Notes under the pieces: generated by a model | Database searches by the model: none | What the model was told of the DNA's origin: nothing | What the model saw: only the letters and a program-made list of their open reading frames with translations | NCBI GenBank assembly: GCA_963804645.1 | Contig: CAWDRG010000009.1 | Coordinates: 544,001 to 608,000, forward strand | Length of the DNA stretch: 64,000 bases | Source: an uncultured Bacillota bacterium | GTDB taxonomy: Bacteria; Sysuimicrobiota; Sysuimicrobiia; Sysuimicrobiales; Segetimicrobiaceae | Reading direction: 5' to 3' | Made by a program: the position numbers and the translations under genes | Part shown: one piece after another, positions 22,201 through 50,495 of the stretch | Layout of the letters: each line of letters starts with the position of its first letter | Position numbering within the stretch: position 1 is the first letter of the stretch

Positions 22201-23013
22201 ATGAGAGAGCCGGATCGTCACACCGGTTCGCCGGTCGGCACCGCCGTCGCGTATTGGCCGGTCATGATCTGCCTGCTCGGCGCGTTTCGCGTGCTGAAAC
22301 AGGGTCACCCGGTCCACCTCCGCAGCGGCAGCAAGTTTCAATCGCTGCTCGTCACCCTGTCGACGCGCCGCGGCTACTGCGCGCCCCGCGAGGCGCTGCT
22401 CGAGGCGTTGTGGCCCCGCAGCGCCGAGTCGTTCTCACGCCAGTCGCTGAATACCCTGGTGCACAGCCTCCACAAGCGCCTCGGCGACGCGCTGGACGGC
22501 GCGACGCCCGTCGTGCACGCGGACGGGTACTACCGATTGAACGTCGAGGCCGGCGTGCGCGTCGACGTGGGGTGCTTCGACTCCCTGGTCTCCGCCGGCG
22601 AGCGCGAGGCCCGGCTGGGCAACACGGTCGCCGCCGCGGGCGTGTACAGCGAGGCGCGGGACCTGTACCGCGGGGACCTCTGCGTCGGGGGCGACCCGTA
22701 CGCCGTGGTCGAGCGCGAGCGCGTGCGGACCGCCTACCTCACCCTCCTCGCCAGCCTGGCCGACTCCTATTATATAGAAGGCCGATACGACGCCTGTCTC
22801 CGGGCCACGCTGGAGCTGCTGGCCGCCGACCCGTGCCGCGAGGACGGACATCGGATCGCGATGCGCTGCCACGTCCGCCGCGGCGAGCGCGCGCAGGCCC
22901 TGCGGCAGTTCCAGCTGTGCCGGGCCATCCTGCGCACCGAGTTCGACGCCGAGCCCGAACCCGCCACGATCGCCCTGTTCGACCAGGTCCGCCTCGCGCC
23001 CGACAGCATCTAG
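22201..23013 (+). CDS. SARP/AfsR-type transcriptional activator (OmpR-like wHTH + BTAD)
   Basis: LLGAF, REALLEALWP, VDV..F, LYRGDL, DPCRE..HR.AM, GERAQALRQF and EFDAEP motifs. Confidence 0.88.
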   Translation: MREPDRHTGSPVGTAVAYWPVMICLLGAFRVLKQGHPVHLRSGSKFQSLLVTLSTRRGYCAPREALLEALWPRSAESFSRQSLNTLVHSLHKRLGDALDGATPVVHADGYYRLNVEAGVRVDVGCFDSLVSAGEREARLGNTVAAAGVYSEARDLYRGDLCVGGDPYAVVERERVRTAYLTLLASLADSYYIEGRYDACLRATLELLAADPCREDGHRIAMRCHVRRGERAQALRQFQLCRAILRTEFDAEPEPATIALFDQVRLAPDSI

Positions 23014-23020
23014 CCAAACC

Positions 23021-23096
23021 TCATCGCACGTTCAGCACGTCATCAGCCCCGCATTCACGGGGCCCTCAGCGTTTCCTCAGCACCGGCGGCTATGAT
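23021..23096 (+). promoter_or_regulatory. Candidate SARP/BTAD-activated promoter: six TCA(G/T/C) direct repeats plus a TATGAT -10 box
   Basis: TCA cores at 23021, 23032, 23043, 23055, 23066 and 23077 (spacing 11, 11, 12, 11, 11; four are TCAGC); TATGAT at 23091-23096. Confidence 0.7.
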
Positions 23097-23132
23097 CGGC
23101 GTGGGTCACTCAATGCTACTGTGAGGTATGCC

Positions 23133-23333
23133 TTGGAGAGTGTCCCGCCCGAAGGTCTCCAGGACAAGCGCTACATCACGCTGATTTTGCGGTTGCTGAT
23201 CGATAAGCACGGGGGGCTGGTGCATGGCGAAGTGGCGGATATGGACGGAACGGCGGGTCCGCGATTCGCGGGCTGGCAGGCGTTGACGCCGGCCGTTCAA
23301 GAGTGGCTGGTGAGCATCGGGCAGGGCGAGTAG
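23133..23333 (+). CDS. Small hypothetical protein (~66 aa), first gene of the CIS operon
   Basis: GAGGT RBS then TTG; protein-like composition (RYITLILRLLIDKHGGLVHGEVAD...RFAGWQAL); start could be GTG 23121. Confidence 0.6.
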   Translation: MESVPPEGLQDKRYITLILRLLIDKHGGLVHGEVADMDGTAGPRFAGWQALTPAVQEWLVSIGQGE

Positions 23334-48654: not shown

Positions 48655-48763
48655 TGGCGGTTCCCGTCAGGCGGGGTTGTAGCGCCGTGGCCGCCACCTC
48701 GTCGCTCGCCGCCGTGCCGTGCGGGTGGACCGGGCATCCCGCGCGGCTCGGCGGACACGCGCC

Positions 48764-49108
48764 CGCCAGAACGGCGTTGGCAATCAATGGAGCCGCGCGT
48801 GCCGATCGGGGCCGTTGACGATCCGCTGGAACACGAAGCCGACGCGATCGCTGAGCAGCTGCCGGCCATGATGGAGCCCGCGGGCCCCGCCGCGGCGGGC
48901 GGCGACGTGCCAGGCGCGGGCCCCGCTGTCGGCCGAGGCGCCGTCGATCGTGCACGACGTGCTGCGCTCGACGGGCCGGCCGCTCCTCGCGTCAATGCGC
49001 GTGTTCTTCGAGCCGCGGCCGGCGCAGCCACGCATCGCACGAGGTCACGACGAGTTTGGTCGGCCCACACTGCCAGCACCAGTCGCGGTGGGGAGCCGGG
49101 AGAGATAG
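48764..49108 (+). pseudogene. Degenerate remnant of a third DUF4157-type gene
   Basis: Motifs in alternating frames: QNGVGNQ; PIGAVDDPLEHEADAIAEQL; APSIVHDVLRSTGRPLLASMRVFFEPR. It stops before the HExxH core. Confidence 0.7.
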
Positions 49109-49112
49109 AGCG

Positions 49113-50495
49113 ATGGCGATGATGGCGGTGCAGGTGCTACGTCCCGCGCAGCCGACGCCGACGTCGAGCCGCCGGCCCGGTGAAAACCCCTTGGCGCCGA
49201 AACGCGCCCCGGTATCGAGGCAGACGGCCTCGCCGGGCGCGTGCGGACCGCCGTCGAACGTCGGCGGGCGGCCCCGGCCGTCGGCCGCCGAGGGTGCCGG
49301 CACGGCGGCGCCGATGCAGCGGAAGTTGAGGGTTGGCGCGGTCGACGACCCGCTCGAGCGGCAGGCGGATCGGGTGGCCGACCAGGTGGTCGTGGATCTG
49401 GGGAGTCCGACGGCTGCCGGCGCGGGCCGGGGCGTGCTGCAGCGTAAGTGTTCGTGCGGAGGTGAGGCGGCCAGCGGCGGGGAGTGCGAGGCGTGTAAGC
49501 AGAAGCGCCTGCAGCGTGTGGCGTCGGGTCCCGCTGGCGCTGCGGCCGCACCACCGCTCGTCCATGAGACGCTGCGTTCGCAAGGACGGCCGTTGGACGC
49601 GAGTGCGCGGACGTCGATGGAGTCGCGCTTCGGCCACGATTTTGGCAAGGTGCGCGTCCATATCGACGCCCGCGCCGCGGAGTCGGCCGGCGCGGTGAAC
49701 GCGCTTGCCTACACGGTGGGGCACCATATTGTATTTGGCGCGGGGCAGTACGATCCGCACTCGGCGACGGGCGCTAGGCTGATTGCGCACGAACTCACGC
49801 ACGTCCTCCAGCAGGACGGAGGTGCTGAACGGCTCCAGCGTCAGAGCGACACCTCGTCGGGGGACGGGACCTCGGGTATCGACGCGTCCGGGGGAGGAGG
49901 CGTGGACAGCGACACGTCGGGGGGCGCAGCAACCGCGACGTCCGACGACTGCAGCACGCCACTGAGCATGACGATCGTAAAGTCCGGTGCATTCAAGGGC
50001 GGGTTTACGCTCGACACGTATTATCCGATGCTCGCCGGGCATTGGCCACACCCCGGTACGGCGGGACCCTGGGTCACGGCGGAACGCGCCGGCGTCAACG
50101 TCCAATTGTTGGGACGCATTCCGCCTGTGTGCTCGCCCGACCTATATGCGATCAATCAACAGCGTGTGACGAAGCTCTTCACGGTGGACGGTGTCACGCA
50201 GGCCGATCAAGGCCAGACGCATTCTGATGATTTTGGAGAGCAGCAGTGGGATACGTCACGTCCACCGTTCCGCCAGGTGTGGCTGGCTCCAGAATCAACC
50301 GGTATGGTCCCGACGATCACGTTTGCGGATACCCCCGATGTTGCCTTCGTGTTCCAAGGCCAGCGTGCGCAGAGCGTCGAGCGTGACGTCGATTACACAA
50401 CGACCCTGACGGGCCCGAGCGGCAGCGAGTCTGTGATTTGGTCAACCTCGGTCCGGTATGCCGACGGGAAGGTGACGACGAACACCGTCACGTGA
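49113..50495 (+). CDS. DUF4157 (eCIS core, HExxH) protein with uncharacterised C-terminal domain; candidate cargo/effector
   Basis: LRVGAVDDPLERQAD, Cys motif, MESRFGHDFGKVRVH and LIAHELTHV motifs; Gly/Ser/Asp linker then a ~180-aa domain. Confidence 0.85.
   Translation: MAMMAVQVLRPAQPTPTSSRRPGENPLAPKRAPVSRQTASPGACGPPSNVGGRPRPSAAEGAGTAAPMQRKLRVGAVDDPLERQADRVADQVVVDLGSPTAAGAGRGVLQRKCSCGGEAASGGECEACKQKRLQRVASGPAGAAAAPPLVHETLRSQGRPLDASARTSMESRFGHDFGKVRVHIDARAAESAGAVNALAYTVGHHIVFGAGQYDPHSATGARLIAHELTHVLQQDGGAERLQRQSDTSSGDGTSGIDASGGGGVDSDTSGGAATATSDDCSTPLSMTIVKSGAFKGGFTLDTYYPMLAGHWPHPGTAGPWVTAERAGVNVQLLGRIPPVCSPDLYAINQQRVTKLFTVDGVTQADQGQTHSDDFGEQQWDTSRPPFRQVWLAPESTGMVPTITFADTPDVAFVFQGQRAQSVERDVDYTTTLTGPSGSESVIWSTSVRYADGKVTTNTVT
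49431..49508 (+). repeat. Dispersed repeat copy 2 of the Cys-motif segment
   Basis: Matches 46231-46308. Confidence 0.8.

Follow-up and report, generated by a model that had tools for sequence, protein, structure and literature searches.

A dbeCIS subtype IIc contractile injection system operon, probably of horizontal origin, with a predicted glycosyltransferase gene linked to a candidate fibre gene

The contractile injection system (CIS) of Streptomyces davawensis is a characterised member of a cross-phylum group that covers diderm and monoderm phyla, according to the available portion of its description (Nagakubo et al. 2024, PMC11126660), and this group corresponds to dbeCIS subtype IIc (Chen et al. 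2019, PMC6899500). In the accessible text of the latter paper, two afp11 genes, a split afp8 and a PAAR gene mark subtypes IIa and IIc, while subtypes IId and IIb have one afp11. Other described systems are CIS-Sc of S. coelicolor (IId; PMC10066040, PMC12237407), the CIS of Halogeometricum borinquense (IIa; PMC11566945) and Afp/PVC (Ia). The published eCIS model, as far as its available text extends, already contains BTAD regulators and 3' DUF4157 toxins, and release in it occurs by cell lysis with no linked lysis genes named (PMC8213781).

The window analysed here, 64,000 nucleotides in length, comes from an uncultured peat-metagenome bacterium which, judging from its LpxC (1.2e-84) and Omp85 (3.9e-31) matches, has an outer membrane and LPS. 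The GC3 frame plot, the start-site listing and Pfam/NCBIfam scans delimited 22 co-oriented genes and one doubtful remnant at 22201-50495, all on the + strand, with mostly 4-8 base overlaps or gaps of less than 25 bases between them and with transport and metabolic genes on the flanks. The region is predicted to be a single co-oriented operon for a complete CIS, in the order SARP regulator, sheath, tube, cap, AAA ATPase, split hub and spike, PAAR-like tip and gp25, followed by two gpJ proteins, a Tail_P2_I-like adaptor, DUF6519, DUF6734 and two DUF4157 proteins. The initial annotation had proposed an Afp/PVC-like CIS cluster, neither prophage tail nor T6SS, and the domain content bears this out, as does the sheath, to which phage sheaths are at most 34% identical as against 56-78% for those of CIS loci. 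Its description of the cluster as self-contained also stands: the genome's only sheath gene and only two DUF4157 genes lie in the cluster, and the SARP gene is directly upstream. Likewise, scanning of 47 window ORFs (28 + 19) agreed with the reported absence of capsid, integrase, holin and endolysin genes and detected no portal, terminase or tape-measure family; no tRNA gene was found within the window, and TssC was not found in the genome. Two points of the earlier gene list are corrected: its two "gpI-like" ORFs are one gene, and a 70-aa ORF at 23121-23333 had been overlooked.

The sheath gene (23419..25647; Phage_sheath_1C 4.5e-12) encodes a 742-aa Afp2/Cis2 homologue with an insertion of ~300 aa. 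Its best PDB sequence matches were 8bky (250 bits) and 8bl4 (243 bits), which accompany the description of cytoplasmic CISs in S. coelicolor and S. venezuelae (PMC10066040), and the haloarchaeal 9ezm (234 bits), while the scores against Afp/PVC were only 141-164 bits. In a tree of sheaths only (69 rows; two IIc references, one IIa and one IId), the window sequence grouped with both IIc references in a clade of 63 rows (SH-aLRT 99), and the IIa reference, the IId reference and the phage outgroup were all outside. Gene content alone does not separate IIa from IIc, and the IIc call is that of the sheath tree. The sheath phylogeny suggested earlier as a check thus places the locus with IIc CISs. 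The best named relative was that of Novosphingobium resinovorum pSA1 (56.7% identity), and Mycobacterium sp. JS623 pMYCSM01 was also among the matches; both are IIc in supplementary tables (PMC6899500). Because the sheath is patchy among relatives (present in 1 of 40, and in none of the 22 of the same family) and the closest sheaths, with 76-78% identity, belong to Acidobacteriaceae MAGs, the locus was probably acquired horizontally.

The gene order is shared with JS623, an S. anthocyanicus plasmid and four MAGs/genomes of other phyla. JS623, a member of the S. davawensis group that appears in the synteny figure of the available part of PMC11126660, has sheath, tube, two genes without assignment, DUF4255 cap, ATPase and a small gene, and continues as in the window with tube initiator, LysM-like protein, hub, spike, PAAR-like tip, gp25 and two gpJ. 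The likeness to S. davawensis itself, drawn through JS623 and through the order of locus tags in that text, extends from tube initiator to DUF6519: tags 7578 (tube initiator), 7580 (spike), 7582 (PAAR-like tip) and 7587 (DUF6519) are spaced as in the window. As described there, S. davawensis, too, has DUF4157 cargo and, towards the end of its cluster, a peptidoglycan-binding protein. However, the window lacks the giant tme-like DUF4157 gene between ATPase and tube initiator that defines the S. davawensis group, and its DUF4157 genes are instead at the 3' end; its OmpA domain forms part of a DUF4157 protein, whereas the peptidoglycan-binding protein of S. davawensis stands alone; DUF6519 is followed by an inserted DUF6734 gene; the upstream side has a SARP gene and a 70-aa ORF; and the host, unlike S. 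davawensis, is a diderm. Resemblance to S. coelicolor is seen in the best PDB matches of the sheath, in the 9gtp_1K match of the second gpJ protein and in the absence of an Afp13-type fibre, Afp14 tape measure and ClpV from both, but the single afp11 and unsplit afp8 of IId (PMC6899500, available text) and the two divergent promoter regions of the S. coelicolor cluster (PMC10020575, accessible part) differ from the window, and neither its membrane adaptor CisA after the baseplate genes nor its Sco4256-type effectors fit. Afp/PVC share the superfamily, the core parts and toxins encoded at the 3' end, but differ in their unsplit Afp8, in their three sheath paralogues and in having Afp12 besides a single Afp11; their fibre is an adenovirus-like Afp13 and their tape measure Afp14 (PMC6899500, in the text available). 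Therefore, the "poorly described subtype" of the initial annotation cannot be maintained: its signature of split hub/spike, two gpJ and PAAR-like protein is published, its sheath groups with IIc references, and its order is largely that of the S. davawensis CIS as far as PMC11126660 is available. BTAD regulators, 3' DUF4157 proteins and DUF6519 fibres have likewise been published (PMC8213781 and PMC12923769, available portions).

The tail and baseplate parts are encoded by genes for the inner tube protein (25670..26197; Phage_T4_gp19 1.4e-43, TIGR02241 3.4e-41), an Afp16-type cap/tail terminator with an Ig-like extension (27768..29042; Pvc16_N (DUF4255) 5e-46, TIG 3.9e-7), an Afp15-type AAA+ ATPase (29039..31000; WHD 7e-18, AAA 3.8e-25), an Afp5/7-type tube initiator (31337..31942; CIS_tube 0.0011, under cut-off; 80-83% identical to its positional homologues of G001-G004) and a LysM/gp53-like baseplate protein in a conserved position (31956..32321; weak matches of 0.009-0.1). 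The gp27-like half of Afp8, the hub (32314..33450), had no Pfam match but aligned with a CDS of locus L075 annotated as 'contractile injection system protein, VgrG/Pvc8 family' (26% identity, E 5e-6); the gp5-like half, the spike (33466..33975; Phage_base_V 4.7e-20), is followed by a PAAR-like spike tip (33994..34311; DUF4280 0.017, PAAR_motif 0.44), at whose position Halogeometricum has an annotated PAAR domain protein. Next are a gp25-like sheath initiator (34316..34684; GPW_gp25 5e-17) and two baseplate wedge gpJ/Afp11 homologues, the first at 34681..37134 (Baseplate_J; TIGR02243 2.9e-71) and the second at 37131..39980 (TIGR02243 2.8e-72), whose sole PDB sequence match was 9gtp_1K, a baseplate protein J-like domain protein (E 5e-8). 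The adaptor (39977..42257; Tail_P2_I 0.018 in the first 148 aa) is Tail_P2_I-like and ~760 aa long. It appears as two ORFs, 39977-40795 and 40419-42257, but these are one gene, since it is a single in-frame ORF in all five relatives examined and one base near 40417 is missing from the contigs of four of four metagenome runs; by this comparison, an extra base near 40417, a 1-base assembly error, splits it. The tube initiator, LysM/gp53, PAAR-like and Tail_P2_I assignments are backed mainly by position and synteny.

The adaptor gene is followed by that of an 886-aa DUF6519 (eBAP5) protein (42310..44970; DUF6519 7e-63), a candidate tail fibre. DUF6519 is described in the available part of one bioinformatic paper as the eBAP5 tail-fibre anchor domain, used with Tail_P2_I adaptors (PMC12923769), and the fibre assignment draws on this paper together with a moderately confident model (pLDDT 76.6, pTM 0.47), for which Foldseek matched a phage phi812 baseplate chain and Ig-like domain arrays with whole-chain TM-scores of ~0.1. 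The DUF6734 gene (44980..45933; DUF6734 1.6e-50, the sole Pfam match, with no glycosyltransferase family at the E 0.01 limit) comes after the DUF6519 gene in every checkable locus, and is present in 13 of 15 genomes of the window's IIc sub-clade versus none of 34 outside, that is, it is confined to this sub-clade. Its product is confidently predicted to fold as a GT-A/GT8-like glycosyltransferase (model pLDDT 91.3), the best fold matches being the UGGT catalytic domain, glycogenin, LARGE1 and viral GT8 proteins (Foldseek probability 1.00; E 1.5e-5 in the PDB and 6.8e-7 for a viral GT8 protein; TM-scores 0.42-0.53). With the GT8/GT24 retaining enzymes it shares the GT-A fold and D118-x-D120, at a sequence identity of 10-13%. 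H116, D118, D120, H279 and K285 are invariant, in line with the DxD transferase proposed earlier, and the six-residue distance between H279 and K285 equals that of the GT8 'HxxGxxK' motif. The linkage of a GT8-like DUF6734 gene to a candidate fibre gene is what is novel here; the rest of the cluster is of a kind already catalogued.

At the 5' end, the gene at 22201..23013 encodes a SARP-family transcriptional activator with a winged-helix DNA-binding domain and BTAD. The BTAD match (2e-25) and the position directly upstream of the cluster uphold the SARP regulator named before, with Trans_reg_C at 4.2e-5, under the Pfam family cut-off, and NCBIfam AfsR/SARP models matching only in part. In 8 of 67 related loci, each of the eight titled Chloroflexia, Anaerolineae or Anaerolineales, a SARP homologue is encoded upstream of the sheath gene and in the same orientation. 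Between the SARP and sheath genes is a conserved 70-aa ORF (23121..23333; start codon uncertain) with a coding signal in the GC3 frame plot, positional homologues by tblastn (46% identity, E 2.5e-12 in L024; 41%, 7e-11 in L028) and no Pfam family.

Both cargo candidates contain DUF4157 with HExxH. The first (45982..48654) also has an OmpA-like peptidoglycan-binding domain (eCIS_core 1e-29; OmpA 1.4e-16; YiaD glycine zipper/OmpA model 1.6e-24, under cut-off), in agreement with the OmpA-bearing DUF4157 protein of the initial annotation, together with PQ/PT linkers, a glycine-zipper hydrophobic segment (residues 491-509) and Cys-rich C-terminal domains without assignment. DUF4157 and OmpA were both present in 49 of its 120 best homologues listed. 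The second (49113..50495; eCIS_core 1.7e-31) has a C-terminal domain of ~200 aa without a match in Atlas.

We consider it probable that the locus is a horizontally acquired, complete operon for a CIS of dbeCIS subtype IIc, the group with DUF6519 (eBAP5) fibres, and that, jointly, it works as follows. By homology and synteny, a SARP-type activator gene and the conserved 70-aa gene precede a ~27-kb CIS operon. The DUF6519 protein would be a fibre attached via the Tail_P2_I-like adaptor, and DUF6734 may be an active GT8-like glycosyltransferase in the cytoplasm, with a function linked to the fibre's distal part. The two 3' DUF4157 proteins would be cargo loaded through the DUF4157 domain on the spike/tube-initiator complex, as such loading and binding to the spike complex have been shown for Streptomyces CISs (PMC11126660, PMC13277306, in the portions available). 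Particles would assemble in the cytoplasm, and the fibre gene and peptidoglycan-binding cargo suggest the bacterial cell envelope as a possible target. It is about as likely as not that lysis of the producer frees the particles and that these then bind other bacteria by means of their fibres. The missing lysis genes do not settle where the particle acts, and the window sequence holds no signal distinguishing release from retention.

A cytoplasmic CIS, as the initial annotation suggested among other options, that is never released and fires at the membrane or envelope of the cell that made it, in response to stress or at a defined stage of growth as in S. coelicolor and probably S. davawensis, with the OmpA-bearing DUF4157 protein helping to attach the system to the cell wall, is possible if somewhat doubtful. 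The DUF6519 protein of S. davawensis binds a peptidoglycan-binding protein that adheres to the producer's own mycelium (PMC11126660, available text), which favours this self-directed mode, as do the cytoplasmic-CIS sheath structures 8bky and 8bl4, the peptidoglycan-binding domain encoded near the cluster's end and the absence of lysis genes among the ORFs scanned. However, the locus is outside IId, the lineage with the demonstrated cytoplasmic mode; no membrane protein follows the baseplate genes, the place of CisA in S. coelicolor; among non-enzymatic accessory genes the sole hydrophobic segment is within the cargo protein; this protein has no transmembrane segment between DUF4157 and OmpA, so both domains would be on the same side of a membrane; the host is without report of a filamentous or developmental habit; and it has been cautioned that the mode of action is unreadable from sequence (PMC12998442).

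A T6SS-like, membrane-anchored CIS that is triggered by cell contact and fires outward, as the haloarchaeal (IIa) system does, is unlikely. The Halogeometricum baseplate half does have the same make-up (split hub and spike V, PAAR, gp25, two gpJ and a long, 735-aa 'phage tail protein' adaptor), DUF4157 proteins, secreted cargo there, are also encoded after it, and the sheath scored 234 bits against 9ezm. In contrast, that cluster forms two sub-clusters with the cap and ATPase genes in the opposite orientation and a six-helix membrane anchor gene, lacks the DUF6519 and DUF6734 that the window has, and its sheath, 36% identical, is outside the window's 63-row clade; here no multi-span anchor homologue stands beside the cluster, which has transport and metabolic genes on its flanks, and the trans-envelope complex that such a system would require in a diderm is not encoded here, with no TssC found in the genome. 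A defective prophage tail or R-type tailocin is highly improbable: all structural genes are phage-tail homologues and integrase fragments lie upstream of the sheath gene in the close relative L009, but the best phage sheath (Bacillus phage BCD7, 34% identical) is a tree outgroup, Pvc16_N/DUF4255, the Afp15-type ATPase and DUF4157 are eCIS-locus markers, and the window has no head, terminase, integrase, tape-measure, lysis or tRNA gene.

Several small genes complete the operon. A short ORF with a weak coding signal in the frame plot (48787..49122) looks like a remnant that keeps just the N-terminal 'GAVDDPLExEAD' motif of a DUF4157 protein, as this motif also precedes the DUF4157 core in the 49113-50495 gene. 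Two products without a family match in Pfam/NCBIfam scans are encoded 3' of the tube gene: a conserved, subtype-specific 268-aa protein with two CxxC pairs (26210..27016), whose homologue comes directly after the tube gene in almost every related locus, and a Pro/Ala-rich protein of uncertain start (27034..27771), whose C-terminal 40-75 residues are kept in L009, L011 and L035. The 115-aa protein following the ATPase (30997..31344), called from coding frame and position, has weak homologues at the same place in six loci, and a small gene is found at this position in JS623 and the S. anthocyanicus plasmid as well.

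Between positions 22201 and 50495 of the window, 22 co-oriented genes and one doubtful remnant were found on the + strand, most of the genes overlapping by 4-8 bases or being separated by gaps of less than 25 bases. Due to the high G+C content of the window (~70%), genes were called by third-position G+C together with candidate starts, and their families were identified with Pfam and NCBIfam. The first gene of the cluster encodes a SARP regulator (BTAD, 2e-25, above the cut-off), and the structural genes comprise those for the sheath, followed by the tube (gp19 family, 1.4e-43), the cap (Pvc16_N/DUF4255, 5e-46, with an additional TIG domain), an AAA ATPase that includes a winged-helix domain, the spike (33466-33975, Phage_base_V), a gp25 protein and two adjacent baseplate J proteins (TIGR02243, ~3e-71 each). 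These are accompanied by genes for an 886-aa DUF6519 protein (7e-63, residues 3-457), a DUF6734 protein (1.6e-50) and, at the 3' end, two eCIS_core/DUF4157 proteins of 890 aa (cargo 1, 45982-48654) and 460 aa (cargo 2, 49113-50495), the first of which also contains an OmpA domain (1.4e-16). Family matches were weak (E 0.001-0.4) for four proteins, namely the tube initiator, the LysM-like protein, the PAAR-like tip and the Tail_P2_I-like adaptor, and the hub (32314-33450) had none; these five were therefore identified by position and by synteny with annotated loci. The 268-aa, Pro/Ala-rich, 115-aa and 70-aa proteins did not match any Pfam or NCBIfam family. The initial annotation's list of parts is thus supported by both families and synteny, and so is its statement that head, integrase and lysis genes are missing: no head, terminase, integrase, holin or endolysin family was found in the cluster, the flanks or the 19 other window ORFs scanned, which, the flanks included, encode transport and metabolic proteins. 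The operon is bordered by a luciferase-like monooxygenase/SBP_bac_5/creatininase group (18282-21973) and a sugar-type ABC importer (50666-53790); neither repeats nor a tRNA gene mark these borders, and there is no tRNA gene anywhere in the window.

The adaptor gene (39977-42257), which precedes the DUF6519 gene, had been taken for two gpI-like genes (39977-40795 and 40419-42257), and this reading had to be corrected. In all five relatives examined, the two parts form a single in-frame ORF with no stop. In the window, the gene is split by an extra base within a GGCGG run (40410-40421); one base at ~40417 is missing from the contigs of all four peat metagenome runs (three samples at most, from two studies), and dropping it restores the reading frame. 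A programmed frameshift was rejected in favor of an assembly error, because the metagenome contigs do not carry the extra base. The match of the adaptor to Tail_P2_I is weak (0.018), and its C-terminal ORF matched PDB sequences only at chance level (E 0.15). The sole feature of a remnant ORF at 48787-49122 (+ strand) is a GAVDDPLExEAD motif, a copy of which precedes the DUF4157 core of the following gene; the ORF looks like what is left of a third cargo gene or may stem from another assembly indel. The CIS operon is real, complete and apparently intact, and its sole apparent break is an assembly error.

The initial annotation had proposed that this cluster represents a poorly described subtype, and this proposal did not survive comparison with the published catalogue. 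According to the accessible text of PMC6899500, two afp11 copies occur only in subtypes IIa and IIc, afp8 is divided into two ORFs (gp27-like and gp5-like) in IIa, IIb and IIc, and afp10 is missing only in IIb. The cluster contains two afp11 genes and a split afp8, which fits the traits of IIa and IIc, and the PAAR-like gene is a candidate for afp10 (weak match to DUF4280, 0.017). The core eCIS set of tube, sheath, LysM/Afp7, Afp8, gp25, baseplate J, AAA ATPase and DUF4255 terminator is complete, with weak matches for the LysM-like protein and the tube initiator. For IIc, afp6, afp12, afp13 and afp14 are expected to be missing or too divergent for detection; TetR, Afp12, adenovirus-fibre and tape-measure families were not found with Pfam or NCBIfam, a missing match being weak evidence. 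A T6SS would have a TssB/TssC sheath and a TssJLM membrane complex, and no VipB/TssC match was found in the genome (96.8% complete). The supplementary tables of PMC6899500 list Novosphingobium resinovorum pSA1 and Mycobacterium sp. JS623 pMYCSM01 under IIc, Halogeometricum pHBOR03 under IIa and Deinococcus actinosclerus CP029777 under IId. The Novosphingobium plasmid gave the best plasmid match to the sheath (56.7% identity), and JS623 was also matched, whereas the best phage sheath was only 34% identical. A maximum-likelihood tree (69 rows, quick search, rooted with phage BCD7 as outgroup) was built from a single marker, the conserved C-terminal part of the sheath, with two IIc, one IIa and one IId references. 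In this tree, the window sheath falls into a 63-row clade (SH-aLRT 99) together with both IIc references, and the IIa and IId references lie outside this clade. Within the 63-row clade, a 19-row clade (99) unites the window with Novosphingobium and with a clade (99) of 17 rows from Acidobacteriota, Nitrospira and Isosphaeraceae. The placement of the sheath from a Streptomyces anthocyanicus plasmid is unsure because of its very long branch.

Among solved structures, the sheath matched best 8bky (250 bits) and 8bl4 (243 bits), two entries that accompany the study of the CIS of S. coelicolor and S. venezuelae (PMC10066040), followed by 9ezm (234 bits), cited in the Halogeometricum paper (PMC11566945), Pvc2 (164 bits) and Afp2 (141 bits). 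Sheath residues ~130-430 (window 23800-24700) form an Ala/Thr/Gly/Ser-rich insertion of ~300 residues that is missing in the 534-539-aa chains of 8bky and 8bl4. The sheath match lengths of the relatives span ~1480-3120 nt, and therefore this surface insertion is highly variable. Synteny was compared in 67 related loci on contigs from one genome per species, of which five were extended. Most of the 67 loci have the same run of genes downstream of the sheath, and the order from the sheath to DUF6734 is identical in three of the five extended loci (two Acidobacteriaceae MAGs and Granulicella sp. dw_53); an Isosphaeraceae locus has the same order up to its contig end, which lies inside DUF6519, and a Chloroflexia locus has the same order without DUF6734. 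The locus is an ordinary member of the catalogued subtype IIc: the traits thought to be unusual are published traits of IIa and IIc, and the sheath groups with the IIc references.

The accessible part of the study on the S. davawensis CIS (PMC11126660) reports that its group is spread over diderm and monoderm phyla, and its synteny figure includes the JS623 plasmid (CP003079), Koribacter, Chloroflexus, Bradyrhizobium and others. JS623 has the gene order of the window, but differs in having two DUF4157 genes, one of them encoding 1819 aa, after the small post-ATPase gene and ahead of the tube initiator; in the window, the ATPase and tube initiator genes are separated only by a 115-aa gene, and the DUF4157 genes are at the 3' end instead. 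In S. davawensis, as far as the accessible text describes it, BN159_7576 is Tme, a DUF4157 effector, 7578 is the tube initiator, 7580 is the VgrG-like spike, 7582 is the PAAR-like tip, 7587 is the receptor-binding-protein-like DUF6519 protein, and 7588 is a peptidoglycan-binding protein, which attaches to 7587 and to the mycelium (PMC11126660). The spacing of these tags, judged from the tag numbers alone, matches the window genes one for one from the tube initiator to DUF6519. The gene order of the window, for the structural genes only, is thus largely that of a characterised CIS, by both the JS623 order and the S. davawensis tags. The very long ORF with an N-terminal DUF4157 that precedes the tube initiator in the "tme" group is missing in the window, and the locus, although filed under IIc, is therefore outside the strict "tme" group. 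The cytoplasmic CIS of Streptomyces (IId) has a single afp11, an unsplit afp8 and a CisA-type bitopic membrane adaptor, in contrast to the two afp11 genes and split afp8 of the window, in which the genes after the baseplate, the position of a CisA-type protein, encode no hydrophobic segment except within cargo 1.

The regulator, the fibre and the cargo cassette have each been described in print. The accessible text of PMC8213781 lists BTAD among the eCIS "shell" domains, together with Tail_P2_I and LysM, treats BTAD genes as operon regulators in its model, and describes 3'-terminal toxin genes of operons, the products of which carry DUF4157 with HExxH at their N-terminus. In the accessible part of PMC12923769, DUF6519 is named eBAP5 and counted among five N-terminal domains that anchor eCIS tail fibres to the baseplate. 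Current views are not overturned, and the claim of a new subtype fails.

The genome (5.3 Mb, 22 contigs, 96.8% complete) carries Omp85 and LpxC near each other on one contig, and WhiB was not found in it. The host is therefore a diderm with LPS and not an actinomycete; an actinobacterial host, which the G+C content of 70% and the SARP gene had suggested, was ruled out by the same three genes. The window stretch is also present in contigs of peat metagenome runs. The sheath gene is single in the genome, and the two DUF4157 genes of the cluster are the only ones there. When 40 relatives were searched, the sheath was found in one, a genome of the same order, and was not found in any of the 6 genomes of the same genus or the 16 others of the same family. 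The nearest sheaths (76-78% identity) are from Acidobacteriaceae and Terriglobia MAGs with ~55-57% G+C. On this distribution, the cluster was acquired horizontally; its G+C content (0.66-0.74) is not distinct from that of the flanks. In the closest Acidobacteriaceae relative (L009), two adjacent ORFs with integrase domains (Phage_int_SAM_4 and Phage_integrase) lie at 8190-9462 on the - strand just upstream of the sheath gene, which hints at a mobile context in that locus; there are no such genes in the window. The sole characterised IIc member comes from a Streptomyces, and the window provides a further IIc CIS, complete and apparently intact, whose host is a diderm of peat soils.

The regulator, read as a SARP in the initial annotation, has the domain architecture of that family, in which an OmpR-type winged-helix DNA-binding domain (Trans_reg_C, 4.2e-5, 24 bits, just below the cut-off of 26.2) precedes BTAD. 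Between the SARP and sheath genes there is an unannotated ORF of 70 aa (23121-23333, + strand), which had been missed and which has counterparts in the corresponding position of two Chloroflexia loci (L024, 9622-9828, E 2.5e-12; L028, 9672-9830, E 7e-11). The SARP gene and the small ORF recur ahead of IIc operons in Chloroflexota MAGs as well as in the window. Scans for promoters and terminators in the SARP-sheath gap and at the 3' end gave nothing that exceeded shuffled sequences, and the gap contains one weak two-copy direct repeat of 20 nt and three short inverted repeats, which are not read as SARP sites. The SARP protein, perhaps together with the 70-aa protein, would switch the operon on, and, as a minor addition, this module offers a possible way to turn on such silent operons.

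The DUF6519 protein has the features of the eBAP5 fibre class, namely an N-terminal DUF6519, a preceding gene with the weak Tail_P2_I match and no match to Afp12. Its AlphaFold2 model, built from 42 sequences, has a pLDDT of 76.6 and a pTM of 0.47. The best PDB match of this model in Foldseek came from Staphylococcus phage phi812 and was one of its baseplate chains (E 1.1e-6), and the remaining matches were arrays of Ig-like domains (cadherins, pilins and alpha-2-macroglobulin); whole-chain TM-scores were low throughout (~0.1). The search against PDB sequences gave a chance-level match (E 0.22). The model fits a baseplate-attached, adhesin-like candidate, which does not by itself prove a target. 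Among the candidates scored, more than 5100 homologues of DUF6519 were found at E 1e-5 or better. The proteins of the window's sub-clade align with the window protein over residues 1-881, whereas the alignment stops at approximately residue 500-530 outside it, in a Chloroflexia locus and in the S. anthocyanicus plasmid. Therefore, a C-terminal part of the fibre of ~390 residues, missing in DUF6519 proteins outside the sub-clade, co-occurs with DUF6734. In the S. anthocyanicus plasmid (L075), the DUF6519 gene is followed by a hypothetical gene of 7.4 kb (40993-41587 and beyond; 290957-298327 of the record) and not by DUF6734.

The description of the DUF6734 protein as a DxD transferase was borne out by its predicted fold. 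Its model (pLDDT 91.3) matched best in the PDB the UGGT catalytic domain, glycogenin, LARGE1 and alpha-1,3-galactosyltransferase (E from 1.5e-5, probability 1.00, TM 0.42-0.47), and the best viral fold match was a GT8 protein (6.8e-7, TM 0.51). In 38 sequences, H116, D118, D120, H279 and K285 are invariant, D118-x-D120 forming the DxD motif, and the spacing of H279 and K285 is presumably that of the GT8 motif HxxGxxK. DUF6734 is thus a predicted glycosyltransferase of the GT-A, GT8-like type, and it should act in the cytoplasm because it has no hydrophobic segment. When the 49 genomes behind 50 of the 67 related loci were surveyed, DUF6734 was found in 13, with one match each; these are 13 of the 15 genomes belonging to the 17-row sheath clade of the window, and the other 34 had none. 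In nine of the 13, coordinates put DUF6734 on the strand of the sheath gene and 20-27 kb 3' of it, three of these placements being confirmed by tblastn and the other six relying on contig identity deduced from numbering and coordinates; in the other four, the CIS contig ends before the position of DUF6734. An even sample of the class of Granulicella had DUF6734 in five of 301 genomes, and in all four new genomes it is directly 3' of DUF6519 on the same strand, one pair being fragmented. In one genome of the class Terriglobia (G322:C5:520789-524004), the DUF6519-DUF6734 pair lies in several fragments and looks like a decaying copy of the module. Altogether, DUF6734 is immediately 3' of DUF6519 in all eight loci resolved at the gene level, and coordinates are consistent with this in six more. 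Since the fibres of the sub-clade align up to residue 881 and others only to ~500-530, DUF6734 appears to be tied to one particular distal fibre half. It also occurs outside CIS, as a match in the Bacteroides thetaiotaomicron control genome indicates. A full-text literature search for DUF6734 returned no paper, and the term does not occur in the readable part of the supplements of PMC12923769. The one point that was not found in print is that a GT8-like DUF6734 gene is strictly coupled to a single kind of DUF6519 fibre.

What DUF6734 does for the particle may be explained in several ways. Modification of the particle, at its fibre or at the surface of its sheath, has a little less than an even chance of being its role. 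A role as an effector is rather doubtful; DUF6734 as the sole payload was ruled out, since two genomes (G009 and G010), like the window, carry DUF4157 genes right after DUF6734, and in three others (G001, G002 and G004) DUF4157 genes are located elsewhere in the genome. Other roles, including a change in the surface glycan of the producer as self-protection, are slightly less probable still. We tentatively suggest, as an idea that is itself on the unlikely side, that DUF6734 could be a fibre-matched glycosyltransferase and a new kind of CIS accessory, which either glycosylates the particle (distal fibre or sheath surface) or modifies the surface glycan of the producer. In the latter case it would keep released particles from binding to kin, much as seroconverting prophage glycosyltransferases block superinfection. 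Prediction of a complex between DUF6519 residues 495-886 and DUF6734 gave a score of 0.00, which speaks neither for nor against binding. The coupling of DUF6734 to the fibre provides a testable handle on fibre modification or on the way in which producers escape their own particles.

The HExxH motif is conserved in both DUF4157 proteins. Cargo 1 consists of the DUF4157 core (residues 143-220), an OmpA-like domain (319-413), PQ/PT linkers, a glycine-zipper hydrophobic segment (491-509), a Lys/Asp-rich linker and ~330 residues without a match. It is unlikely to be an anchor that bridges the inner membrane, because no transmembrane segment is predicted between its DUF4157 and OmpA domains. DUF4157 and OmpA occur together in 49 of the best 120 homologues listed, some of which align over 82-90% of the length, and other DUF4157 relatives among the matches listed contain VanY, M23 or PG_binding_1 domains. 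These domains fit cargo that may act on bacterial cell walls. Searches of the ESM Atlas returned no usable match to the C-terminal part of either cargo protein. As a further minor addition, DUF4157-OmpA proteins form a recurrent cargo family, probably acting on bacterial cell envelopes.

Homology and synteny together show a complete particle-building gene set with a linked regulator and linked cargo. Particles would assemble in the cytoplasm with the aid of the ATPase, the DUF6519 protein would be mounted on the Tail_P2_I-like adaptor, and the DUF4157 proteins would be loaded at the spike. In two Streptomyces systems, the partner bound by DUF4157 proteins is the complex of spike and tube initiator. 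It has been stated explicitly that the firing site is not readable from sequence (PMC12998442). We favor a bacterial envelope as the probable target, because the fibre has adhesin-like domains and the cargo is predicted to bind peptidoglycan and possibly to insert into membranes. Release by lysis followed by attack on other bacteria has about an even chance of being the mode of action. The eCIS model in the accessible text of PMC8213781 has particles released via cell lysis and names no linked lysis genes, and therefore the missing lysis genes do not settle the firing site. Action from inside on the envelope of the producer itself, which has been proposed for S. davawensis and shown for subtype IId, is less probable at roughly one chance in three, and other modes account for what is left. 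In Granulicella sp. dw_53, the region immediately upstream of the CIS operon (L018, 6769-9442, - strand, opposite to the operon) encodes a protein with a phage tail collar domain and another with collagen-repeat/CBM96/CBM5_12 domains, both of which may be extra fibre-like proteins.
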